In this document: positions 1 through 47,772 of the stretch, piece after piece
Layout: the number at the start of each line of letters is the position of its first letter
Position numbering within the stretch: the stretch's first letter is position 1
Source of the DNA: a virus
Lineage: Duplodnaviria; Heunggongvirae; Uroviricota; Caudoviricetes
Length of the DNA stretch: 47,772 nt
IMG/VR virus record: IMGVR_UViG_2698536610_000001
Direction: 5' to 3' (one strand)
The notes under the pieces: model-generated
Databases searched by the model: none
Seen by the model: only the letters and a program-made list of their open reading frames with translations
Told to the model about the DNA's origin: nothing
Program-made: the position numbers and the translations under genes

Positions 1-1
1 A

Positions 2-1297
2 TTAATTTTTCATTGCTTCGTTATGGGGCATGGTTGGGGCAAACTCGCTTAACTGTGTATTTAACAAAGCTACCTGTGCATTATTGTTTTCAGACATCCA
101 TTTTCCGTATACCTGAAATACCATTTGCGCATCTGCATGGCCCATCTGGTTTGCTATAAATGCTGGGTTAGCACCAGCTGTCAGCGACCAGCAGGCATAA
201 GTATGTCTCGACTGATATGATTTTCGATGGCGGAGTCCGGCACGTTTTATCGCTGCGTCCCACATCTGCCTTATTGAGTCAACGGTAAAATGGTCACCAT
301 AATTTTTTACTCTCGCTGACACTTCAGGTTGAAAAACAAAGGTGCATTTATGTTTTTCTGTTCTGCCATACTCTCTGAGGTGAACATCAATGATATGCTC
401 TTTGCTCAGTCTCGTTAATGTCATCTGACTCCGGAGAGCGTCGATTGCTGGCTTAATAAGATGAATGACCCGATTGGTTCCCGCCTGTGTTTTTGGTACC
501 GTGAAACGGTCTTTTGCTAAATTTCTCCTGATCATCATTGTTCCATTTTTCAGATCTATGTCCTCCCATCCAAGTGCACACAGCTCACCAGGGCGAACGC
601 CAGTATAAACAGAAACACACCATAAATTTTTGGCTTGCTGATTTCTGCACGCATCGATAAGACGGATGAATTCCTCCCGCGAAAGAGGATCCGGAATGGT
701 TCTTGATTCCTTTAATGGCGAGATCCCCTTAAACGGGTTATCTGCCAGGTAACCGTTATCAACACCAAACTGGAACACGGCGTTAAGATTTGTCATGTAA
801 TTATTTACAGTTACAGCCGATCTCCCTGGTTGTGTAACAATATAGTTACTTTTGGGGATCTGGTATCCAGTCAGTAGCTCTTTACGAACCTCCAGTAATT
901 TTTCTTTATTAATCGATGAGGCAAGATTTTTTTCACCGATTATGCTCAGGATATTTTTGATGACGGCACGGTATGTGTTGAGTGATGTTTTTGCGACTTC
1001 AGTTTCTTTCAGTGCCAGAAATTTTTCAGCCAGTTCTTTTATGGTTAAATCTTGTCGGGCCTCACCAAATTTTTCCAGATTGCGTGAGGAGGGAAACTGT
1101 TTTGCATAGTCGAAAACACCAGTTTTTATTGCGTAACAAACAGAGGCGCGTAGCTCACCTGCAACGCGCCTGTTTTTTGCTGTGTCAGGAACCCCCAGGT
1201 TTTCCCTGACTCTTACGCCTTTATAAACAAACCAGATACGTAATTTCCCTCCATGGTTTTCCACGCCTGTCGGATATTTCATTTCAACTTCTCTCAT
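2..1297 (-). CDS. int: Phage tyrosine integrase (site-specific recombinase), Rac/Qin-type
   Basis: 431-aa ORF; C-terminal catalytic region with the R...H..R...Y pattern (…HRKSYQSRHTYACWSL…GHADAQMVFQVYG); N-terminus resembles lambdoid prophage integrases; sits at the prophage edge next to an excisionase-like gene. Confidence 0.9.
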   Translation of the reverse strand: MREVEMKYPTGVENHGGKLRIWFVYKGVRVRENLGVPDTAKNRRVAGELRASVCYAIKTGVFDYAKQFPSSRNLEKFGEARQDLTIKELAEKFLALKETEVAKTSLNTYRAVIKNILSIIGEKNLASSINKEKLLEVRKELLTGYQIPKSNYIVTQPGRSAVTVNNYMTNLNAVFQFGVDNGYLADNPFKGISPLKESRTIPDPLSREEFIRLIDACRNQQAKNLWCVSVYTGVRPGELCALGWEDIDLKNGTMMIRRNLAKDRFTVPKTQAGTNRVIHLIKPAIDALRSQMTLTRLSKEHIIDVHLREYGRTEKHKCTFVFQPEVSARVKNYGDHFTVDSIRQMWDAAIKRAGLRHRKSYQSRHTYACWSLTAGANPAFIANQMGHADAQMVFQVYGKWMSENNNAQVALLNTQLSEFAPTMPHNEAMKN

Positions 1298-1316
1298 TAG
1301 TTAGTGTGGCTTTTAG

Positions 1317-1568
1317 TCAAGTAAAATGACGTCTTGGTCTTGCTGATGCCTGGCGCTCAATCCAGCGATCAATTTCTTCCAGGTTGTAAAAGCATGGACT
1401 GTTATCCCATGGCATACCGTCATGAGCGACATGCTTATATTCCCTTCCTTCCATAAACGATTTTTCCCGGGCCTTTTTTAACGTACCTTTTTTTATTCCT
1501 TTCAGCGCAATTAACTGCTCTTCGGATACCCATTTGCCGGGAGAGACAATCATGATTACTTCGCTCAT
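1317..1568 (-). CDS. Excisionase-like protein (start codon uncertain)
   Basis: Small basic ORF immediately upstream of int on the same strand, the canonical xis position; identification is positional plus general family resemblance. Confidence 0.5.
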   Translation of the reverse strand: MSEVIMIVSPGKWVSEEQLIALKGIKKGTLKKAREKSFMEGREYKHVAHDGMPWDNSPCFYNLEEIDRWIERQASARPRRHFT

Positions 1569-1640
1569 CGATTTCTTTATCTCTTACATCAGACGAGCGC
1601 CGGTTGCAGAATACCAGTCACAACCGGCGACAGTTGAACA

Positions 1641-4112
1641 TTAAGAATCAGCCTGACTCGGGATCAGTTTTTGCCAGATAGCTGAAACGTATTTTGCCTG
1701 GTAACGGGCGTCATCAAGTGCATTATGGCGCTCACCTTCGAATGGAATAGCCGTTCTGGCATCGAAGTCTATGGCTTTCCCCAGCTCAACGATTGTGCGT
1801 ACATCGCGATCGTTGTAGTAACGCCACGGGCAGGGGATTCCCTGCCGTTCGTATGAACGGCGCAAAATCGTGTTGTCGAAGTTGGCTCCATTTCCCCAGA
1901 CATGAACAAAAAATTCACCGGAGTTTTCGTCGATAAATTCCCGCAATTGTAACAGTGCATCATCTAACGGGATTTCATCGGTCATAATGGCAGATTGCGC
2001 TTCGCGTGATTGTTTAAGCCACCATTTAATGGTGTCACGATCAATGACTCCGCCAGCAGTTTCCAGATCGATAGTCTTACTAAATTCCGGTCCCATATCT
2101 CCGGTTTGCGGATCGAAAAATATTGCACCTATTGAGATAATCGGGGCATCGGGATTTTTTCCCATGGTTTCAAGGTCGATCATCAGATGAATCCCCGCTC
2201 TGCTGGTGGATGTGAGATTATGATGACCGTTCGTCTTAATTAAGGGATCTGACGCCTCGCCAGTTTCACTATCGCTGGCATGATGCTGATTGCCGCCAGT
2301 GTTCTCCTTGTGCTGATGCGCAGTGCCTTCCATTTCCTCCGGATCATTTTCCTGAACTTCAGGCTGATTCTCTCCATCGAATATTTCCTGGTATGTTGCG
2401 TCACCCATCACCGCACCACAATCAGGGCAGTTGCCGCCACCGCTATGACCGCAGGCGGTGCAGATCTTTTCCGGTTCCTGTTGCACTACTGGTTCAGGTT
2501 GTTTCGTTTCTGGCTCGTTTTGTTGCGTATTTGGGCTGTTTTGTTCCGCTTTCTGGTCGTTCTGTTCCGTTTCTTGCTGGTTCTGGTTCACAGAATCGAG
2601 GGTCTGGATCCCCTTAACCCATTTCGGATCATTCGGGTCGCTAATCCCTTCAACAAATTCACCACGTGATACTGCAAGCAGTTCATCGGCGTCAGGCTGG
2701 CTGATATTGGCTGCCTGCATAATTTTGTTTACTTCGTCAGAGGTAACTTTTACTGACCCTGGTTGTGCGGTCGTGTCAGATGCACCAGTATTTTGTTGTG
2801 AACCTGAGTATGTACCGTTTTTGCGGGCGAAATATTCTTCTTTCGTGATTTCAGTAGCCCCAGCAGACAGCGCCTTATCCAGACCAGAAAGTTTGTTTGC
2901 GCGACCGTATTTTTCGCCATCCTTGTCGGTGAAGAGGAAGTAGAACGGCCCCTCACGTTCTACAGATGGTTCGACTTCCACTTTGCATTCGGTTTTTTCG
3001 TTGTCTGGAATTGCCGTTTCCACTGCATCAGTTTCTGGTACTGGCGACGAGAGAGTATCAGTTGCGCTCTGATTTGTTCCTTCATCTTCAAACACGCCCT
3101 TTGTAGTCAGGTATTCAGTAATGTATTTGTTCAGTGCCACAGGGTCTTTGTGAATGTCGATCGGACGTTCACGGACAAGGCCAAAAATAGTCTGGCGGTC
3201 GTAGCGAAGGGCATCAGGCTGTTTGCGCATTGATGCCGAGATACGCTTCCAGTCTTCGCGGTCGTTGTCGATAACTTCTTTTTTTGCCCAGCGATGGATG
3301 CTGCCGTCAATGTTTCCGGCATCCACATCACCAGGCCAGAGAGCGTAGGCCAGTTCGTCATCCAGTGTTTTCCATGTCTGCTTGTATTCGCGATGAATGG
3401 CAGCAATGACCGGGTTGATTTTTCCTGTTGAATTTTCAGTGTGCTGTTGATTGGCTCTGGCGCGGGCGAGATCAACAACAGACGTGTATTTTCCGGCTTC
3501 CTTGCGTTCACCTTCGCGACGTTTTTTCCAGATGCGCATCTCTGCCTGAATTTCGGGCCATTTGGCACCAGGCTTACATTTATGCTTAACCCACCCGATG
3601 GCATGCAGCTTAAGCTCCGGATACATAGCGTTAACTTCTGGCATTTTCATCAACGCTTCAACGATATGGCCGTCGAATGTTGCCATGTCTTCCTGCAACA
3701 ATTCCTGTGCGCTAATCACCATATCAACAGTGATGTTTTCACATGTGTGGAACTTAACCATGACAGCGTTCTGTACTTCAGGGGCCAGCTTGTCAAAAGT
3801 GACGTTCATCGGATCGGATTCAGTCTCAACCGGAACAAAAGAAGCAGACGCCTCATCCCAGCGGTTTTCCTGCATATATTCAGCATCCCAGGAATCGAGG
3901 GCAGGGCGGGGTATACCGGGTTTATCCTCGCAAACAAGAAATTTATAAGCGCAGTCCTGAGCAGCCGGATAATGTTCCAGGAATTGCCAGTGAAATTTTG
4001 CTCGAGCACGGCGTTCGTCGCCAGCTTCAATGGCTGTGGCTACAGCCACAGCGCCTTCTTCCCTTGTTGCCAGTTCGTCAGGAATAGCGGCGCAAATAAA
4101 GACTTTACTCAT
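1641..4112 (-). CDS. Prophage exonuclease with C-terminal DnaQ-like DEDDh 3'-5' exonuclease domain and internal Cys4 zinc ribbon
   Basis: 823-aa ORF; C-terminal motifs MIDLETMG (Exo I), HVWGNGANFD (Exo II), HNALDDARYQ (Exo III); CTACGH…CPDCG zinc-ribbon motif; acidic low-complexity linker. Often annotated as exodeoxyribonuclease VIII in databases, but the domain seen here is DnaQ-like. Confidence 0.8.
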   Translation of the reverse strand: MSKVFICAAIPDELATREEGAVAVATAIEAGDERRARAKFHWQFLEHYPAAQDCAYKFLVCEDKPGIPRPALDSWDAEYMQENRWDEASASFVPVETESDPMNVTFDKLAPEVQNAVMVKFHTCENITVDMVISAQELLQEDMATFDGHIVEALMKMPEVNAMYPELKLHAIGWVKHKCKPGAKWPEIQAEMRIWKKRREGERKEAGKYTSVVDLARARANQQHTENSTGKINPVIAAIHREYKQTWKTLDDELAYALWPGDVDAGNIDGSIHRWAKKEVIDNDREDWKRISASMRKQPDALRYDRQTIFGLVRERPIDIHKDPVALNKYITEYLTTKGVFEDEGTNQSATDTLSSPVPETDAVETAIPDNEKTECKVEVEPSVEREGPFYFLFTDKDGEKYGRANKLSGLDKALSAGATEITKEEYFARKNGTYSGSQQNTGASDTTAQPGSVKVTSDEVNKIMQAANISQPDADELLAVSRGEFVEGISDPNDPKWVKGIQTLDSVNQNQQETEQNDQKAEQNSPNTQQNEPETKQPEPVVQQEPEKICTACGHSGGGNCPDCGAVMGDATYQEIFDGENQPEVQENDPEEMEGTAHQHKENTGGNQHHASDSETGEASDPLIKTNGHHNLTSTSRAGIHLMIDLETMGKNPDAPIISIGAIFFDPQTGDMGPEFSKTIDLETAGGVIDRDTIKWWLKQSREAQSAIMTDEIPLDDALLQLREFIDENSGEFFVHVWGNGANFDNTILRRSYERQGIPCPWRYYNDRDVRTIVELGKAIDFDARTAIPFEGERHNALDDARYQAKYVSAIWQKLIPSQADS

Positions 4113-9028: not shown

Positions 9029-9625
9029 ATGGTTGGTGTTACTCAAAGGTCAGGGAATTACTCACGTAATGTGCAGGTGGTTGTCGATTCTAACTCTGTT
9101 GATATTATAAAGTCTCCATCGATTTTTATGGATCTTGTTGGTATTTTAGTTGATTCGAATGTTATTGATCCTCGTACAAACAATGACTACGAGCCATATG
9201 ATATTGAGAATAAAATAGACTTCAATGATGTTATAAAACATAGAGAACGTATTGAAGGGTTCTATCTATATTCTTCGATGATAGATAAAGCGTATGAAAC
9301 ATTAAATGAAAGTATGCCTACTGCTAAGGAAACGGCACTGAAAAGCATCAATTCACGATATCTTGATTGTCAAGGAGATTTATTGCTTAAACATAGAGAA
9401 GCGTATAAGAGCTGCAAGGATGCTCAGGAACGGAATAATTTAAAGATTCAATTGGTAAGAGAGTTTGCAGATTGGATAATAGACAGTGTAATAGAGCACA
9501 TCATTAAGAAATGCTTAAATTCTCTTATGGCAATGAATTACACAAGCGAAGAAATCGAATGCCATGCTTCTTTTATCGTTTATCATGCATTCGTAGAGTG
9601 TAAGATTCTGGAAAAACCAATATGA
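9029..9625 (+). CDS. Hypothetical 198-aa protein (cassette gene B)
   Basis: Tightly coupled to A upstream and C downstream (ATGA overlap); no motif recognised. Confidence 0.55.
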   Translation: MVGVTQRSGNYSRNVQVVVDSNSVDIIKSPSIFMDLVGILVDSNVIDPRTNNDYEPYDIENKIDFNDVIKHRERIEGFYLYSSMIDKAYETLNESMPTAKETALKSINSRYLDCQGDLLLKHREAYKSCKDAQERNNLKIQLVREFADWIIDSVIEHIIKKCLNSLMAMNYTSEEIECHASFIVYHAFVECKILEKPI

Positions 9626-9858
9626 TTATCTCTGATGTAACAAAACCAAGCCAAACCTTGTATTACCTGGGGGCTCGGTTATTAGAATGCATGAGTTCAA
9701 ATGCTTATTCGTATGTTGATATTATAGACTTGTATAATGAATTCAAATCTAAAAATAACAACTCTTCATTCACGCAATATATTTACACTTTAAATTGGCT
9801 ATATTTATTAGGCCTGGTTGATGCTAACGAAAATGGAGATTTGATATTATGTTTTTGA
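9622..9858 (+). CDS. Hypothetical 78-aa protein (cassette gene C)
   Basis: Overlaps B by 4 nt and D by 10 nt; small, probably helical. Confidence 0.5.
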   Translation: MIISDVTKPSQTLYYLGARLLECMSSNAYSYVDIIDLYNEFKSKNNNSSFTQYIYTLNWLYLLGLVDANENGDLILCF

Positions 9859-11573
9859 AACGGCTAATAGTCAGTTCTTTCAGGCTTGGAGTGATTCGTG
9901 ATATCGAATTTCACATTGGCGTTAATTTGATTATTGACCGAAACACCTCCAGCAAAGAGCAAACTGGAAATGGTGTGGGAAAAACTACTGTATTAAGAGC
10001 TTTAGATTTTTGTTTTGGAGCAGAACAACTGAATTTTTATACCGATCCTGAATTCAAGAAAGAAAATTCGGTTATAAAAAATTATTTGATAGAGAACGAG
10101 ATTGAGTTTTGTTTAATTCTCACAAAAGATTTGAATAATAAAACTGCACCAGTAATAAAAATTAAGCGTAAAATTACATCTGAGACTAATAAAACGAAGG
10201 TTATAGCCTCAATAAATGAAGAGTCCTATACGAAGGCTAAAGATTTCAACGAGGCTTTAAAAAGAACATTATATCTTGATTCCGCGATAAAACCGACCAT
10301 ACGAGAGATTATGGGACGTGTTATTCGAAATACGCATGACAAGATGTCGAACGCATTAAAAACGATAAAAATGGGTTCTAATACACAATATGAAACGTTA
10401 AATCTGTTTATGTTTGGGTTCGGTAACTCACAGATTCTGGATGAAAAACAGTCAGTGACTAAAGCCTATAAACTGGCGAAATCCGATTATGAAGTAATTA
10501 CTCGCCATCGCTCAAAGAATGCTTTGGAACAAGCTATTGCAATTATAAATAGAGATATTATAGCACAAGAAGAGTTAATTTCTAATTTTCAAGTGGCAGA
10601 CTCTTATAATGATATGCTTGCTGAGTTAAATGAGTTAAAAATTAAAATTAGTGAAGTTTCTATCATACTATCATCTTTGGAGTTTAAGCAAAAATTAAAC
10701 GATAAGGCTATACTAGATCTGGAAAAAAGTCATGAAAATATAAATACACTAGATCTACAGAAGTTGTACTTAGAAGCAACTGATCGGTTAGGTAACTTAA
10801 ACAAAGAGTTTACTGAGCTACTTTCGTTTCATAATAAAATGCTTGTAAAAAAAGCTGAGTTTATTAGAAAACAAATGCAGCCAGTGCTGCAAGAAATTTC
10901 CAAATATAAAGATGAACTAAATAACTTATTGACTCAAGAATCAGAGCTTTTAAAGAGTTTGTCTTCGCATGGGACATTGGCAGACCTGCAAATAATGCAA
11001 AAAAAATTAAATTCATTATTTGAAGAAAAAGGTGGGCTTGAAGCTGGACTACTTCAAATCCAAGAGATGGAGAACAACTTTAATATACTGAAAGCAAAGT
11101 TTAATGATGTGTCAGATAGATTAAAATCTAAACTTGACGATTTTAACAAACGTCTTGCGCTATTCAATTCCTATTTTTCTTTATATACTAAAAAATTATA
11201 TCAGGATGAATATATTCTTTCCTATAAAGATTCCTCCGGTTCTTTCGTTTTTACCATTGAACCTTTAGGAACTTTGCTCACATCAGGTAATCAGGGAGAA
11301 GGAAAAAAGAAAGCCCAGGTTGCCTCTTTAGATTTTGCCTATTTATCTGTCCAGGAGTCTTTAGAAGCCAGAACACCACGTTTTATAGCTCATGATGGAA
11401 TTGAGGCAATTCATGTAAATCAAATAAATAAGTTATTCGAGATAGCTTCGGGGATTAATGGTCAATATATATTGGCTATTCTTAAAGACAAGTTGGAGAA
11501 TATTGATCAAGACTTCATCAATAATAGTGTTGTGCTTGAGCTTGGGGAGGACGATAAGTTTTTTAGGCTTTAA
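9849..11573 (+). CDS. ABC-type P-loop ATPase with long central coiled coil (SMC/Rad50-like architecture) (cassette gene D)
   Basis: Walker A GNGVGKTT at aa 40-47 (nt 9966-9989); heptad-rich helical region roughly aa 220-440; C-terminal signature-like TSGNQGEG, Walker-B-like RFIAHD and a following His. Confidence 0.7.
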   Translation: MFLKRLIVSSFRLGVIRDIEFHIGVNLIIDRNTSSKEQTGNGVGKTTVLRALDFCFGAEQLNFYTDPEFKKENSVIKNYLIENEIEFCLILTKDLNNKTAPVIKIKRKITSETNKTKVIASINEESYTKAKDFNEALKRTLYLDSAIKPTIREIMGRVIRNTHDKMSNALKTIKMGSNTQYETLNLFMFGFGNSQILDEKQSVTKAYKLAKSDYEVITRHRSKNALEQAIAIINRDIIAQEELISNFQVADSYNDMLAELNELKIKISEVSIILSSLEFKQKLNDKAILDLEKSHENINTLDLQKLYLEATDRLGNLNKEFTELLSFHNKMLVKKAEFIRKQMQPVLQEISKYKDELNNLLTQESELLKSLSSHGTLADLQIMQKKLNSLFEEKGGLEAGLLQIQEMENNFNILKAKFNDVSDRLKSKLDDFNKRLALFNSYFSLYTKKLYQDEYILSYKDSSGSFVFTIEPLGTLLTSGNQGEGKKKAQVASLDFAYLSVQESLEARTPRFIAHDGIEAIHVNQINKLFEIASGINGQYILAILKDKLENIDQDFINNSVVLELGEDDKFFRL

Positions 11574-14600: not shown

Positions 14601-15125
14601 TTATTGTTTAACCCATAATAGTTCATTGACATTGAATCCCAACTTTTGAGCGGTACGCACATAGTCTGCTTTTACATTATCTGGAATAGTTTGGGTCCTT
14701 GCCAGAATCCATAGGTATTCTCTGTTCGGACCACTGACAAGAGCATACTTATACTCATCATCCAGTTTGATTACATTATAGCCACCATAGAAGGGGCCAA
14801 AAAACGAAACTTTCAACGCTGCAGTTTTAGTATCTCCAGTAAAGTATGCTTTACCTTCGCTCTCGCTCCATTTGTTTTTCGTTGGATCGTATCCACGGTT
14901 AAGTACGCGAATCCCTCCGTCGTTCCGTTTTTCATAAGTAGCGCTGACCTGTTCCAGACCACGTTCGAACCAGTTCTCGAGGCGAGCTATTTCATACCAT
15001 TTTCCGAGGTAGCGGTTGGCGTCAAAATTTGTAATCGGCTGCACACCTTTAGGTGGTGTCGGGGCCTTACATGCTATAAGAGTGAAAGAGAGTGCAATGC
15101 CAGTCAACACAGGCCATAACTTCAT
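14601..15125 (-). CDS. Bacterial lipocalin (Blc-like outer-membrane lipoprotein), prophage cargo
   Basis: 174-aa ORF; signal peptide with lipobox LIAC; lipocalin motifs …RYLGKWYEIARLENWFERGLE… and KVSFFGPFYGGYNVI match remembered Blc closely. Confidence 0.85.
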   Translation of the reverse strand: MKLWPVLTGIALSFTLIACKAPTPPKGVQPITNFDANRYLGKWYEIARLENWFERGLEQVSATYEKRNDGGIRVLNRGYDPTKNKWSESEGKAYFTGDTKTAALKVSFFGPFYGGYNVIKLDDEYKYALVSGPNREYLWILARTQTIPDNVKADYVRTAQKLGFNVNELLWVKQ

Positions 15126-15317: not shown

Positions 15318-16277
15318 ATGATAAAAAAACCTGTGATTGGGATCAGCGGTTGTTTGGGCGGTTCTGCTGTTCGTTTTGATGGTGGTCACAAAAGAGATGA
15401 CTTTTTAATGGACAAATTAGTGGAATGGGTAACATTCAGACCAGTATGTCCGGAAATGGCTATAGGGCTGCCAGTTCCGCGTCCTGCTCTACGACTTGTG
15501 CGCTCGAAGCAAGGAAATATACGGATGTGTTTCAGTCACGACCAGAATGAGGATGTGACAGAGAGAATGACAGAGTTTAGTCGTTCTTATATGGACAAAT
15601 TAAAGGATGTATCGGGGTTTGTGGTTTGTGCTAAATCTCCCAGCTGTGGCATGGAGCGCGTGCGTGTCTATGATGAAAATGGTAATCGAGGTCGTAAAGA
15701 TGGAGTGGGACTATTTACGAGCACTTTGATGGAAAAGTTTTCCTGGCTACCGGTTGAAGAGGATGGGCGATTACATGATCCAGTGCTTCGTGAGAATTTT
15801 ATTGAAAGAGTTTTTGCTTTGCATGAGCTCAATCACCTTTACAAGGAGAAATTATCAAGAAGAGAGTTATTAGCTTTTCATAGTCGTTATAAGCTTCAGT
15901 TGTTGGCGCATAGCCAGGCAGGCTATAAAGATATGGGACCATTTGTGGCTGCAATACACGAGTGGGCGGACCTTGAATCATACTTTGAGGTGTATCGTGA
16001 TAATCTGATGGCGATTCTCAGAAAACCAGCATCACGTAAAAATCACACGAATGTGCTGATGCATATACAGGGGTATTTTAGTAATTACTTAAGTACACGC
16101 CAGCGTAAAGAGTTGAGCGAGGTTATACTTAACTATCGTTCTGGCACATTGCCTCTTCTTGCGCCGTTGACTCTGCTGAAGCATTATCTGGGTGAGTATC
16201 CTAATGATTACTTGCTTACACAGAATTACTTCGATCCCTATCCGGAAGAACTGGCTTTAAGGCTGATGGTGAATTAA
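15318..16277 (+). CDS. DUF523/DUF1722 (YbbK/YbgA-like) fusion protein, prophage cargo
   Basis: 319-aa ORF; N-terminal VIGISGCLGG…CPE and C-terminal helical domain resemble the YbgA-type family; assignment from memory. Confidence 0.55.
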   Translation: MIKKPVIGISGCLGGSAVRFDGGHKRDDFLMDKLVEWVTFRPVCPEMAIGLPVPRPALRLVRSKQGNIRMCFSHDQNEDVTERMTEFSRSYMDKLKDVSGFVVCAKSPSCGMERVRVYDENGNRGRKDGVGLFTSTLMEKFSWLPVEEDGRLHDPVLRENFIERVFALHELNHLYKEKLSRRELLAFHSRYKLQLLAHSQAGYKDMGPFVAAIHEWADLESYFEVYRDNLMAILRKPASRKNHTNVLMHIQGYFSNYLSTRQRKELSEVILNYRSGTLPLLAPLTLLKHYLGEYPNDYLLTQNYFDPYPEELALRLMVN

Positions 16278-40633: not shown

Positions 40634-40643
40634 TGGGGTGAAT

Positions 40644-43600
40644 ATGGCAGTAAAAATTTCAGGTGTACTGAAAGACGGCACAGGAAAACCGGTACAGAAC
40701 TGCACAATCCAGCTGAAAGCAAAACGTAACAGTACCACGGTGGTGGTGAACACAGTGGCCTCAGAAAACCCGGATGAAGCCGGGCGTTACACAATGGACG
40801 TCGAGTATGGTCAGTACAGCGTCAGTCTGTTGGTGGAGGGATTCCCGCCGTCACACGCCGGGATTATCACCGTATATGAGGACTCAAAGCCGGGCACACT
40901 GAATGATTTCCTCGGTGCAATGACGGAGGATGATGTCCGGCCAGAGGCACTGCGCCGTTTTGAACTGATGGTGGAAGAGGTGGCGCGTAACGCGTCCGCA
41001 GTGGCACAGAACACGGCAGCCGCGAAGAAGTCAGCCGGCGATGCCGGCACATCTGCCCGTGAGGCGGCAACCCATGCGACTGATGCTGCAGGCTCAGCAC
41101 GCTCAGCCAGCACGTCAGCCGGACAGGCCGCTTCGTCGGCTCAGTCAGCGTCTTCCAGCGCAGGAACGGCATCAACAAAGGCCACTGAAGCATCGAAAAG
41201 TGCTGCTGCTGCAGAGTCCTCAAAAAGCGCGGCAGCTACCAGTGCCGGTGCCGCGAAAACGTCAGAAACGAATGCTGCAGCGTCACAACAATCAGCAGCC
41301 ACTTCTGCATCCACCGCGACCACGAAAGCGTCAGAAGCTGCCACCTCAGCCCGGGATGCGGCGGCTTCAAAAGAGGCGGCAAAATCATCAGAAACGAACG
41401 CATCCTCGAGCGCCAGTAGCGCAGCTTCCTCGGCAACGGCGACAGCAAATTCTGCGAAGGCGGCCAAAACGTCCGAGACGAACGCCAGGTCTTCTGAAAC
41501 GGCAGCGGGACAGAGTGCCTCAGCTGCGGCAGGCTCAAAAACAGCGGCTGCGTCGTCTGCCAGCGCCGCGTCAACAAGTGCCGGGCAGGCCTCAGCCAGT
41601 GCCACCGCCGCCGGAAAATCGGCAGAAAGCGCCGCATCATCCGCTTCAACAGCCACAACGAAGGCTGGCGAAGCCACTGAGCAGGCCAGCGCAGCAGCGA
41701 GGTCAGCTTCCGCAGCGAAGACATCCGAAACGAACGCGAAAGCGTCGGAAACCCGTGCAGAATCCTCAAAAACGGCTGCTGCATCGTCCGCCAGTTCGGC
41801 GGCGTCATCGGCATCATCTGCGTCTGCTTCAAAAGATGAGGCGAGCAGACAGGCATCAGCAGCGAAAGGCAGCGCCACGACGGCATCCACGAAGGCGACA
41901 GAGGCAGCTGGCAGTGCGACGGCGGCAGCTCAGAGCAAAAGTACGGCGGAATCCGCGGCAACGCGCGCTGAGACAGCGGCAAAACGGGCAGAGGATATTG
42001 CATCCGCCGTGGCGCTTGAGGATGCGAGCACGACGAAAAAGGGGATAGTACAGCTCAGCAGTGCGACCAACAGCACTTCCGAGTCACTGGCGGCAACGCC
42101 AAAAGCCGTTAAGGCCGCGTATGACCTGGCTAACGGGAAATACACCGCACAGGATGCAACGACAGCACAGAAAGGGATAATCCAGCTAAGCAGCGCGACC
42201 AACAGCACGTCTGAAACGCTGGCGGCAACGCCAAAGGCAGTAAAATCAGCCTATGACAATGCAGAGAAACGTCTGCAGAAAGACCAGAACGGCGCTGATA
42301 TACCCGATAAGGGACGCTTCCTGAACAACATTAACGCGATCAGTAAAACAGACTTTGCTGATAAGCGTGGTATGCGTTATGTGCGGATTAACGCTCCTGC
42401 AGGTGCAACATCTGGAAAATATTACCCTATTGTTGTTATGCGTTCTGCTGGCTCAGTAAGCGAACTGGCATCAAGGGTCATTATCACCACGGCAACGCGA
42501 ACCGCAGGCGATCCGATGAATAACTGCGAGTTTAACGGATTTGTTATGCCTGGTGGCTGGACTGACAGGGGGTGTTATGCTTATGGAATGTTCTGGCAAT
42601 ATCAAAACAATGAACGAGCCATCCACTCAATAATGATGAGTAATAAGGGCGATGATTTGCGCTCTGTGTTCTATGTTGATGGCGCTGCTTTCCCTGTTTT
42701 TGCGTTTATCGAAGATGGCCTGTCAATATCCGCACCTGGTGCTGATCTCGTTGTTAATGATACGACCTATAAGTTTGGGGCAACAAATCCAGCGACTGAA
42801 TGTATCGCGGCGGACGTTATCCTTGATTTTAAGAGTGGGCGTGGTTTTTATGAGTCTCATTCGTTAATCGTTAACGATAACTTGTCGTGCAAAAAACTTT
42901 TTGCCACAGACGAAATTGTAGCGCGTGGTGGTAATCAGATTCGAATGATAGGTGGGGAGTATGGGGCATTATGGCGTAATGATGGCGCTAAAACTTACCT
43001 GCTGCTTACCAATCAAGGTGATGTTTATGGTGGATGGAATACATTAAGACCGTTTGCTATTGATAACGCAACCGGCGAACTGGTTATTGGAACCAAGCTG
43101 TCTGCAAGTCTGAACGGTAACGCATTGACAGCAACAAAGCTGCAAACGCCAAGACGGGTTTCTGGTGTTGAGTTTGATGGTTCCAAAGATATTACTTTAA
43201 CCGCCGCGCATGTGGCTGCTTTTGCCAGAAGGGCAACGGATACATATGCCGATGCGGATGGTGGCGTTCCCTGGAATGCCGAATCAGGCGCTTATAATGT
43301 CACCCGCTCTGGCGACAGCTATATTCTGGTTAACTTCTATACCGGAGTCGGAAGTTGCCGGACCCTGCAGATGAAGGCGCATTACAGAAATGGTGGTCTG
43401 TTCTACCGTTCTTCAAGAGACGGTTATGGTTTTGAGGAAGACTGGGCAGAAGTTTATACCTCGAAAAATCTTCCACCAGAAAGCTACCCAGTCGGCGCAC
43501 CAATCCCGTGGCCATCAGATACCGTTCCGTCTGGTTATGCCCTGATGCAGGGGCAGACTTTTGACAAATCTGCTTACCCGAAACTTGCGGCCGCTTATCC

Positions 43601-44174
43601 GTCAGGCGTGATCCCTGATATGCGTGGCTGGACGATTAAGGGCAAGCCCGCCAGTGGTCGTGCCGTATTGTCTCAGGAACAGGACGGCATTAAATCGCAC
43701 ACCCACAGCGCCAGCGTATCCAGTACGGATTTGGGTACGAAAACCACATCATCGTTTGATTACGGCACTAAATCCACGAATAACACTGGTGCGCATACTC
43801 ATAGTTTAAGTGGCAGCACGAATGCAGCTGGTAATCACAGCCATAGAGATGGCCGTCGATTTAACCCCAGTGTTTTTAAAGATACTTATCAATATGGTTA
43901 TACAAGCTCAGGTCAAAATACCTGGGGTGTACAAGGTTCAGTAGGTATGTCTACGGGGTGGTTAGCTAATACCAGTACAGATGGTAATCATAGCCACTCA
44001 CTGTCCGGCACAGCAGCATCTGCAGGTGCACACGCGCATACTGTCGGTATTGGTGCTCATACGCACTCCGTTGCGATTGGTTCACATGGACACACCATCA
44101 CCGTTAACGCTGCTGGTAATGCGGAAAACACCGTCAAAAACATCGCATTTAACTATATTGTGAGGCTTGCATAA
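40644..44174 (+). CDS. stf: Side tail fibre protein (Stf) with Ala/Ser-rich repeats and C-terminal His-rich repeats
   Basis: About 1176 aa; long (S/T)AxxAAxS repetitive region; C-terminal GAHTHS / GNHSHS / GSHGHT motifs. Confidence 0.85.
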
Positions 44175-44755
44175 TGGCATTCAGAATGAGTGAACAACCA
44201 CGGACCATAAAAATTTATAATCTGCTGGTCGGAACTAATGAATTTATTGGTGAAGGTGACGCATATATTCCGCCTCATACAGGTCTGCCAGCAAACAGTA
44301 CCGATATTGCACCACCAGATATTCCTGCTGGCTTTGTGGCTGTTTTCAACAGTGATGAGGCATCGTGGCATCTCGTTGAAGACCATCGGGGTAAAACGGT
44401 TTATGACGTGGCTTCCGGCGACGCGTTATTTATTTCTGAACTCGGCTCATTACCGGAAAATGTCACCTGGTTATCCCCGGAAGGGGAGTTTCAGAAGTGG
44501 AACGGCACAGCCTGGGTGAAAGATGCAGAAGCAGAAAAACTATTCCGGATCCGGGAGGCGGAAGAAACAAAAAACAGCCTGATGCAGGCAGCGAATGAGC
44601 ATATTGCGCCACTTCAGGATGCTGTAGATCTGGAAATCGCAACGGAGGAAGAAAACTCGTTGCTGGAAGCCTGGAAAAAGTATCGGGTGTTGCTGAACCG
44701 TGTTAATACAACAACTGCACCGGATATTGAATGGCCAGTAGCACCTATAGGGTAA
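44174..44755 (+). CDS. tfa: Tail fibre assembly protein (Tfa)
   Basis: 193 aa; ATG overlaps the stf stop; conserved C-terminus …[27 protein letters not shown]. Confidence 0.85.
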
Positions 44756-45343
44756 ATTCGTAATGATTACCTAAATACGTTATTCTTTTGTTCAAAAAGT
44801 GATTTTGCTATAGGTAGGGAGTATGTTCTTGGATTAAGAATAAAAAATCGCCATGAAAGAGCTTCATGGCGAGTACATAAACGTACAAAATGTGATGAAA
44901 GTAGAGTGGCGTAAGCCACTATATTAAGATATGACAATAGCGAACAAAAGTAAATAACATTTTATGGACGTTTAATTGTTAATTATAAAAACTAGAGTGC
45001 CCGATATTGTTTATCTTGCTTTAAAATAATGTACTCAAACCAAATTTTTGAGCTAAAAGCTCAAATAATATAAATGCAATGATAATGTTTAATAAGACAA
45101 TTAGCTTGCTTTGTATTTTCATTTCGGAATACTGTTAAGTAACTTTGATGACCCTAACAATAGATCGGAATTTTCTTAGAGTCAATGGTCACTGTTTTTG
45201 TTTGCAAAGCAAATGTTTTGGTGGTTATAAGTTTTCCTAATATAGTCACCTATGCAACTTGTTCCGTGTGGAGATTAAAGGTTAAAATTTAATGCGAAGA
45301 TGGAATTATAATATATTTTTTTATAATTAATTTAACCTTAACA

Positions 45344-45441
45344 TCGTTGCTGGCGGCATGGAAGAAATATCGGGTCTTGCTGATATCGTGTTGGCACTTC
45401 CTTAGTGCGGTTATCGAATGGCCAGCTGTACCTGTGGGGTA
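45344..45441 (+). repeat. Degenerate direct copy of the tfa 3' end (remnant 1)
   Basis: CGTTGCTGGCGGCATGGAAGAAATATCGGGTCTTGCTGAT…GAATGGCCAGCTGTACCTGTGGGGTAA aligns with tfa 44656-44755; contains an in-frame stop. Confidence 0.6.
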
Positions 45442-46100
45442 AAAACTTTATATGGATGCTATTTTTATAATAGCTGGTAAAAACTGGCCGAACTGAAATT
45501 CACTGTTGATAAAAAAGATGTGTTTGAGTGTATGTCATTGTTTTCTTAATGGAATCCACTAGAATGCAGCGAATTTAAGAAGGTGGATTTTTATTGGAAT
45601 ATAAACTACAATAATGCTCAACTCGTTCGTAGAATTGTTTTTTCTTATTTCTTGGAATGCTAACCATTATATGCATTATGGGGGCGATACTTCCTGATAA
45701 TTTACATGATGCATACATTGAAGCAATAAATTCAATATCATTGTCATCAAAGTTAAAGCTTTCTCCGTCCATTTCAATTCCTTATGTGTTTGGCACAACT
45801 GATGCTGTATCCCATGAGAATTTATGCAAGTTGTTATGTTTGATTTGATATTGCAATGATAATTGTAGCTAATTGTTTTCAATTGAGTGAAAGTTTATTT
45901 CGAGTGATTAAGTCGAAAAAAAAGATTTCTCACGGTTAGTAAGCATATTAGGTCAGTATTCAGATATGAATGGTATTAATGACTAAATTTTCAATCATAT
46001 ATGGATTTATATGCTGATGAAGATGTTTTATTTGGCGATTCGTCAAGCATCTTCACTTAAGTAATCGTATATTTTAAGAGTGCAAAAGAGAAAGGGACAA

Positions 46101-46200
46101 CGTTGCTCGCACTCTGGATTAAATATAGGGTGTTGTTAAACTGCGTTGATACATAATTGTACCGGATATTGAGTGGTCTGAAGTCCCAGTCATTAAGTAA
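46101..46200 (+). repeat. Degenerate direct copy of the tfa 3' end (remnant 2)
   Basis: CGTTGCTCGCACTCTGGATTAAATATAGGGTGTTGTTAAACTGCGTTGAT…CCGGATATTGAGTGGTCTGAAGTCCCAGTCATTAAGTAA aligns with the tfa 3' end. Confidence 0.6.
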
Positions 46201-46488
46201 TCGTTTCGTGATATGCCGCAGAAACGTTGTATGCAATAACGTTCTGCGGTTGGCTGATGCACTTTCGAGAGTGTATTGAATAATTTCAAGCCGTTATTGT
46301 TTTTACGCGTAACACCATGAAAAGACTGCTTATCTGTTGGGGTGTTTTTTGGGGCATATATGGGACAGAAATAGGCCACAGATAGATAGTAAGATCGAAC
46401 TCAGGATGCTTTTGAAAAAATGTAACTATCTGAAAAAACCTAGAAAGCGCCAAGGAAACCACAGAATGAGAAAAAACATCTGTGAATT

Positions 46489-47772
46489 ATGGATTTCCAG
46501 TTATATTCGCTCGGCGCAGCGTTAGTGTTTCATGAAATATTTTTTCCTGAATCATCAACGGCAATGGCGTTAATTTTGGCAATGGGAACCTACGGTGCAG
46601 GTTATGTGGCGCGTATTGTCGGAGCATTTATTTTCGGCAAAATGGGCGACAGAATAGGGCGTAAAAAAGTGCTCTTTATTACCATCACCATGATGGGGAT
46701 CTGTACCACCTTAATTGGTGTGTTACCGACCTATGCACAGATTGGTGTTTTTGCCCCCATCTTGCTGGTGACGCTGCGTATTATTCAGGGGTTGGGTGCA
46801 GGTGCGGAAATTTCCGGTGCCGGTACGATGCTGGCGGAATATGCACCAAAAGGTAAGCGCGGAATTATCTCCTCATTTGTAGCTATGGGAACTAACTGCG
46901 GAACCTTGAGCGCAACGGCAATCTGGGCCTTTATGTTCTTCATTCTCAGTAAAGAGGAACTGCTGGCGTGGGGATGGCGTATACCGTTCCTGGCGAGCGT
47001 TGTCGTGATGGTCTTTGCTATCTGGTTACGTATGAATCTGAAAGAAAGCCCGGTCTTTGAGAAGGTTAATGACAGCAACCAACCCACAGCAAAACCTGCA
47101 CCTGCTGGTAGCATGTTCCAGAGCAAATCCTTCTGGCTGGCAACAGGGCTGCGTTTTGGTCAGGCGGGTAACTCCGGGTTAATTCAGACTTTCCTTGCAG
47201 GCTATTTAGTGCAGACGTTATTGTTTAACAAAGCAATTCCAACAGATGCATTGATGATTAGTTCGATTCTCGGCTTTATGACCATTCCGTTCCTTGGTTG
47301 GTTATCCGATAAAATTGGTCGCCGGATCCCGTATATTATTATGAATACCTCCGCGATTGTGCTGGCATGGCCAATGCTTTCTATCATTGTAGATAAAAGC
47401 TATGCCCCGAGCACCATTATGGTTGCACTGATTGTGATTCATAACTGTGCGGTGCTGGGATTATTTGCTCTGGAAAACATTACCATGGCAGAAATGTTCG
47501 GCTGTAAAAACCGCTTTACCCGGATGGCCATTTCTAAAGAAATTGGTGGTCTTATCGCTTCCGGTTTTGGTCCTATCCTGGCGGGTATTTTCTGCACCAT
47601 GACGGAATCCTGGTATCCGATCGCCATTATGATCATGGCATATTCAGTGATTGGTTTAATCTCTGCGCTGAAAATGCCAGAAGTGAAAGACCGTGATTTA
47701 AGTGCGCTGGAAGACGCTGCGGAAGATCAACCGCGTGTTGTAAGAGCTGTGCAACCTTCCAGAAGTCTGTAA
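46489..47772 (+). pseudogene. ydfJ: MFS transporter (metabolite:H+ symporter family, ydfJ-like), 5'-truncated at the prophage junction
   Basis: 427-aa ORF beginning inside the conserved N-terminal (E)xxDFxLY region (MDFQLYSLGAALVF…) with no first TM segment; G+C rises to host-like levels; ydfJ is remembered as the Qin insertion target. Confidence 0.65.

Follow-up and report, generated by a model that had tools for sequence, protein, structure and literature searches.

The 47,772-nt stretch of DNA analysed here (IMG/VR record IMGVR_UViG_2698536610_000001), which is called the window throughout, is a tailed-phage record that ends on its right in an open reading frame (ORF) for a bacterial transporter. 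This arrangement raises the question of how a bacterial gene came to be joined to phage DNA at this point, and of what is left of the gene. An earlier note, made from the letters of the window, had placed a right prophage-host junction inside ydfJ and had equated it with the insertion site of Qin. From the comparisons presented below, we assign a probability of about 96% to the reading that positions 46350..46497 represent the attR site of a lambdoid prophage of the mEp460/Qin integration type, which would have been inserted in ydfJ by site-specific recombination mediated by its integrase (Int).

The bacterial part of the junction is defined by the following two features.

46489..47772, + strand: ydfJ', the 3′ fragment of an MHS-family MFS transporter gene, comprising codons 29-455 plus the stop codon (427 amino acids).
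46483-46485, + strand: an in-frame TGA stop codon located two codons upstream of the ydfJ' ATG, where the frame reads ...KKHL*I.

Membership of the ORF in the MHS family of MFS transporters is evident from its MFS domain (Pfam MFS_1, E 1.2e-37; Sugar_tr, E 6e-25) and from its identity to intact YdfJ, which it matches over residues 29-455 at 426 of 427 positions with A449V as the sole substitution. An intact ydfJ allele (e.g. that of FDAARGOS_401) is 1,368 nt in length, encodes 455 amino acids and resides in the order rspA-rspB-ydfJ-ydfI. When the region 45900-47772 was compared by megablast with 5,426 complete E. coli genomes, 5,373 of these matched, always at ydfJ. The window ORF is nevertheless only part of a gene, not a full member of the family, because it carries neither a complete first transmembrane segment (TM1) nor a start and a promoter of its own. 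The equivalent 1,284-nt stretch in K-12 and in strains with a window-like right end is labelled by RefSeq as ‘MHS family MFS transporter YdfJ, incomplete, missing N-terminus’.

The extent of the truncation can be read from the domain alignment. The MFS_1 match begins at residue 21 of intact YdfJ (profile position 2) and at residue 27 of the truncated protein's own numbering (profile position 33), such that the alignment of ydfJ' is short by the first ~30 profile positions. This alignment and the hydropathy profile place the cut after residue 28 inside TM1. Therefore, the N-terminal truncation described earlier is real, but the cut bisects TM1 instead of removing it, and the C-terminal part of TM1 (MDFQLYSLGAALVF...) is retained. 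An upstream start for the ORF is impossible because of the in-frame TGA at 46483-46485, and the intact in-frame ydfJ start whose presence the earlier note had regarded as incompatible with a junction is not there.

Comparison of four att sites served to define the position of the crossover. The bacterial site attB was taken from an uninterrupted E. coli locus (L001), attL from the relatives APEC O78, K-12 and 13KWH46, attR from the window and K-12, and attP from free phages, with mEp460_ev081 as the source. The two features that make up attR are as follows.

46487..46497, no strand assigned: the attR common core, TTATGGATTTC (11 bp), predicted region of strand exchange, which includes the ATG at 46489 that corresponds to Met29 of intact YdfJ.
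46350..46486, + strand: the P arm of attR, of phage origin, given as the minimal stretch kept among prophages with unrelated right-end cargo.

The sequence TTATGGATTTC is the only block identical across attB, attL, attR and attP, and it is likewise the sole block common to all five sequences in an alignment of attB with two attL and two attR sites. To the left of the core, attL tracks attB and attR does not, whereas to the right of the core attR tracks attB and attL does not. Downstream of 46497, attL tracks attP while attR tracks attB; upstream of 46483, attR and attP are collinear and attR is unrelated to attB. A single 1-nt gap lets the similarity between attB and attR reach 46483 but no further (TGAATT-ATGG versus TGAATTTATGG). 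Because attR is collinear with attP and unrelated to attB left of 46483, and because attL runs with attP right of 46497, the exchange is confined to 46483-46497. The alignment of all four sites is consistent with a single reciprocal crossover in the core.

The same boundary emerges from the points at which homology of other genomes to the window begins. These starts are discrete, at 46216, 46230 (K-12 Qin), 46325, 46350 (O157/O145-type prophages) and 46483 (uninterrupted alleles). The start at 46483 marks the bacterial boundary since it is the one found in uninterrupted alleles, and genomes with the other start points share a phage arm of varying length. The alignment to uninterrupted ydfJ proposed in the earlier note thus yields homology that begins at the core. 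The assignment to the Qin insertion site is borne out as well: the K-12 attL carries the same core, and the attR of K-12 runs collinear with the window, base by base, from 46230 to the end of the core.

The core occurs once in the 47.8-kb window and twice, in direct orientation, in the 49.9-kb locus of 13KWH46 (L006), where the copies lie at the rspB/int and ydfJ junctions. It is found at both prophage ends in K-12 as well. For the window element, whose own attL lies outside the window, duplication of the core is inferred from relatives that are 99-99.9% identical. About 0.009 matches of 11 nucleotides are expected by chance between two 200-bp segments, and on these sequence comparisons the attR junction is not a chance feature. 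The view that the core is undefinable from the window is correct for the window taken alone, but genomes from outside define it as TTATGGATTTC. Similarly, attR had been expected within about 100 bp upstream of 46489, which is where part of the P arm is located, but the crossover core at 46487..46497 overlaps the ATG itself.

Base composition follows the junction loosely. The G+C content is 0.323 from the stop codon of the tail-fibre assembly gene (tfa) onward (44756-46215), 0.395 in 46216-46486, and 0.467 in 46487-47772. AT-rich DNA of phage origin does directly precede the ORF as first noticed, and the rise in G+C is real, but it extends gradually over roughly 46000-46800 with no step at the junction. 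A small ORF at 46466..46525 on the + strand (MRKNICELWISSYIRSAQR; 19 codons, with AAGGAA 8 nt upstream) extends through the attR core and into a different frame of ydfJ', and it was considered as a phage-host fusion peptide. This candidate was rejected because O145 RM12761 reads ATG TGA at the same place, and the ORF is unlikely to be a gene.

The other half of the split gene is expected at the left end of the prophage. The window edges coincide exactly with the stop codons of int (1..4) and ydfJ (47770..47772). The window was thus cut on gene boundaries, and for this reason attL, which lies 36 nt further left, is missing from it. Window positions 1-1700, which carry the integrase region, are 99.9% identical to many genomes, and in APEC O78 this region resides directly downstream of rspB. 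The interval between rspB and int in that genome contains the first 84 nt of ydfJ, followed by TTATGGATTTC and by 36 nt of phage DNA that end at the int stop codon, which equals window position 1. The order at this attL is therefore B arm, core, P′ arm, int stop. In genomes with 99.9%-identical int, the attL core accordingly sits 36 nt left of window position 1, beyond the window start as had been predicted. The absence of the other ydfJ half, which would have argued against a junction, is not seen: all related genomes that were inspected carry the 84-nt 5′ fragment in the interval from rspB to int. By analogy, the attL of the window element would read, from left to right, the rspB stop, ~57 nt, ATGACAATAGAAAAACAT... 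(84 nt of ydfJ), TTATGGATTTC, AAGAGTCATG...TATTAA, and position 1.

An attP site was rebuilt from window positions 46327-46497 plus the P′ arm and used as a query against a phage collection. It is contiguous in four free phages (PhiR42_1, HannyBb, mEp460_ev081 and Tritos), with 95-96% identity over 358/360 nt, and it adjoins the integrase gene there. A five-way alignment of the P arm was made from the window, K-12 Qin, LB19b, MS 119-7 and O145 RM12761. The stretch from 46350 to the core is conserved in these five right-end contexts, among which the neighbouring DNA comprises pinQ/ydfK/ynfT, a tail-fibre assembly gene, DinI/NleC, or the filler of the window itself. In Qin-like and mEp460-like elements, P-arm homology extends left to about 46216-46230. 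Two features of the arms may be relevant to Int binding.

46350..46367, + strand: candidate arm-type Int binding sites, TGGGGCATATATGGGACA, a block that is identical among the five contexts and flanked by variable sequence.
1..60, + strand: the distal P′ arm of attL/attP, which overlaps the 3′ end of int and carries TGGGGCA repeats at 24-30 and 35-41.

The TGGGGCA repeats that begin at 46350, 24 and 35 are put forward as candidate arm-type sites on the basis of their position and conservation. This motif shows no enrichment across the whole window, where 7 copies were found versus 7.6 expected.

The enzymes that would act on these sites are encoded immediately next to them.

2..1282, − strand: int, a tyrosine integrase with an arm-DNA-binding N-terminal domain (426 amino acids when read from the start annotated in RefSeq; the program-called ORF reaches 1297).
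1317..1568, − strand: xis, an excisionase (83-aa ORF, 82/83 identical to the mEp460_ev081 excisionase; ‘excisionase family protein’ in RefSeq).

Int matches the Pfam families Arm-DNA-bind_2 (E 5.7e-24) and Phage_integrase (E 3.9e-18), aligns with the structure of the Tn1549 integrase over the catalytic region, and is identical to the Int of mEp460_ev081 at 425 of 426 residues. A cognate integrase and an excisionase therefore adjoin the att site. Binding of Int to the arm and core sites, as well as catalysis of the attP x attB and attL x attR reactions, is its predicted role. The prophage is ~47 kb in length, carries int, xis, terminase, portal, capsid, tail and tail-fibre genes, and looks complete. 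Its closest counterpart over the right half is the prophage of 13KWH46, which is 99.1% identical to window positions 23000-47772. No genome in the collection exceeds ~99% identity over the whole window, and attL was therefore taken from relatives; either the window element is a mosaic or its source genome is outside the collection.

Several other genes of the element deserve mention. In the early region, a 198-aa protein (9029..9625, + strand) matches the Pfam family CTD10 of ABC-three-component (ABC-3C) systems (E 1.6e-10), and the adjacent 574-aa protein (9849..11573, + strand) carries DUF2326 with a weak AAA_21 match and matches the PADLOC candidate defence family PDC-M68B (E 2.8e-41). By these domain matches, the two genes likely form a prophage-borne anti-phage defence module. 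At the equivalent place, the 13KWH46 prophage has a DUF4145 protein. Cargo of a non-phage type includes a Blc-like lipocalin (14601..15125, − strand; Lipocalin_2, E 7.5e-43) and a 2-thiouracil desulfurase/DUF1722 protein (15318..16277, + strand; E about 2e-40). The side tail-fibre protein (40638..44174, + strand; 1178 aa) includes an Ala/Ser/Thr-rich low-complexity repeat region of ~350 residues. The corresponding proteins are 1023 aa in Z1322HEC0001 and 1132 aa in 13KWH46, and these length differences among the closest relatives point to expansion and contraction of the repeats. Further right, a 31-aa ORF (45347..45442, + strand) resembles the C-terminus of the tail-fibre assembly protein (44174..44755) and appears to be what is left of a second, decayed copy of tfa. 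The interval between tfa and attR holds a Pin-type invertase and ydfK in K-12 Qin and mEp460_ev081, and AT-rich filler (G+C 0.32) in the window. The presence of filler in place of the invertase and ydfK suggests that an invertible tail-fibre segment was lost.

Other accounts of the junction can be weighed against these data. A scar left by deletion or illegitimate recombination could also abut AT-rich foreign DNA, and the window by itself, with one copy of the core and no obvious repeat, would fit such an origin. However, the breakpoint is identical to the base in about 3,300 genomes that carry different prophages, the core is present at both ends of complete loci, attP is contiguous in free phages and in-silico excision is exact, which refutes a scar and makes this the most improbable of the explanations considered. 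It is also very hard to sustain that a site-specific crossover took place further upstream, within 46380-46486, such that the sequence around the ATG would be purely bacterial. The 1-nt gap that stretches the attB/attR similarity left to 46483 is in its favour, but left of that point attR matches attP and is unrelated to attB, so that a crossover there is refuted, and the sole exact shared block is 46487-46497.

More weight might be given to the proposal that the 427-aa ORF is a working, shorter transporter translated from Met29, expressed by read-through from the prophage or from a promoter in the P arm, such that the ydfJ-ydfI unit is rewired rather than inactivated. The reading frame is open throughout and agrees with the intact allele at 426/427 residues, the truncated form persists in thousands of genomes, and the late and tail-fibre genes of the phage are co-oriented and point toward ydfJ'. 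Conservation of the ORF, however, is equally expected from recent and repeated insertions, at least 8 residues of TM1 and the entire N-terminal cytoplasmic segment are gone, and RefSeq marks the gene as a pseudogene. A scan of 45800-46700 revealed no sigma-70-like promoter on the + strand and no terminator, and no Shine-Dalgarno-like sequence precedes 46489, where the DNA reads ...catctgtgaattATG. In ydfJ', the fragment is left without its own promoter, ribosome-binding site and 28 codons. A functional short transporter is therefore unlikely, and the lack of a promoter-like site and of a Shine-Dalgarno sequence before 46489 makes it most likely that ydfJ' is a 5′-truncated pseudogene. A related and still less probable idea is that rspAB-ydfJ-ydfI, a sugar-acid locus, is controlled by the prophage as a reversible switch (‘active lysogeny’), or that YdfJ' is expressed by read-through of the late operon. 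The only observations in line with such roles are the apparently intact int and xis genes and the exactness with which ydfJ can be restored.

We therefore favor integration by Int at an att site within ydfJ, in which Int would recombine attP with an attB located in ydfJ codons 28-31. Strand exchange would occur in the 11-bp core common to attP and attB, leaving the core duplicated at both prophage ends. At attR, the phage P arm would come to lie left of the core and the bacterial gene from Met29 onward to its right. At attL, the promoter, the ribosome-binding site and codons 1-28 would stay beside rspB, 36 nt from the int stop codon. Insertion would thereby split ydfJ'-ydfI from rspAB and leave ydfJ as a 5′-truncated pseudogene for which the phage brings no replacement 5′ end. 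Joining the attL of APEC O78, 13KWH46 or K-12 to the attR of the window at the core in silico yields a 455-aa ORF that is identical to intact YdfJ at 454 of 455 residues. Since both Int and Xis look intact, precise excision should restore ydfJ. The competence of the window prophage for excision and the exact bases cleaved within the core are inferred from sequence.

Empty sites are common. Of 5374 complete E. coli genomes searched with a 301-bp attB probe, 2009 (37%) have an unbroken ydfJ site, and the rest, about 63%, are split at the same point. A 2019 review gave an occupancy of 48% among 638 strains (PMC6379469). With roughly 63% of the genomes occupied, ydfJ is inactivated in most sequenced strains, including K-12, and this should be remembered in studies of the rspAB-ydfJ-ydfI locus. 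This cluster has reportedly been tied to L-gulonate catabolism in E. coli CFT073; our search of the literature on the function of ydfJ, rspAB and ydfI returned nothing on the substrate of the transporter. The presence of an attR in ydfJ is already known, and no new biology is added here. The value of the analysis lies in annotation. The right prophage boundary is fixed to the base, with the core at 46487..46497 and phage DNA ending at 46486, the ydfJ ORF is best annotated as a probable 5′-truncated pseudogene instead of a short transporter, and the element as a lambdoid prophage that looks complete and shares the integration type of mEp460 and Qin.

The nearest known system is Qin of K-12, whose attL lies at intQ'/rspB and whose attR lies at ydfJ'. 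Its site-specific integration at the 5′ end of ydfJ removes the promoter and 28 N-terminal codons (PMC6379469). More broadly, published lists of lambdoid insertion sites include ydfJ for strains W, K-12, B, Crooks and SE11 (PMC3032704, PMC2608844). The window element and Qin share attB in ydfJ codons 28-31, the 11-bp core, the P′ arm, the integrase lineage and a P arm that is about 97% identical from 46230, and the outcome for YdfJ, without its 28 N-terminal codons and promoter, is the same. In contrast, Qin is a 20.5-kb decayed remnant in which int is truncated by IS2 and the exonuclease gene is cut, and it has pinQ, ydfK and ynfT beside attR where the window has other right-end filler (44756-46215) and, elsewhere, other cargo. 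The window element agrees with Qin in its integration module and att site, but not in gene content or defective state, and a Qin-site lambdoid prophage, distinct from Qin, is the most fitting description of it. Strains of the O145/O157 type carry at the ydfJ site a prophage in which nleC, a type III effector gene, and a DinI-like gene lie beside attR, and the P arm in O145:H28 RM12761 (L007, 1..1508) matches the window over its last 137 bp only.

Comparison with free phages covered attP, Int, Xis and the gene order from tail fibre to exo. Beyond the 95-96% attP identity of mEp460_ev081, PhiR42_1, HannyBb and Tritos to the reconstructed site, these phages share with the window the order tail fibre, tfa, attP, int, xis, exo. 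They differ between tfa and attP, where mEp460_ev081 carries a Pin-like serine invertase and a ydfK-like gene and the window has an AT-rich stretch with only a 65-aa hypothetical ORF.

The layout of the lambda att sites and the roles of Int, Xis and IHF at them are well established, and the window prophage follows the same order, attL(BOP′)-int-xis ... tail genes-attR(POB′). Also shared with lambda are a long P arm (at least 137 bp in the window), a shorter P′ arm that abuts int, a heterobivalent tyrosine integrase and a separate excisionase. The lambda core, GCTTTTTTATACTAA, is 15 bp in length and lies between gal and bio, whereas that of the window is 11 bp, and the arm-binding domain of the window Int belongs to Arm-DNA-bind_2, which is not the family of the lambda domain. 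Finally, unlike that of lambda, the attB used by the window element resides inside a coding sequence to which the phage supplies no replacement 5′ end, and the target gene is consequently inactivated.
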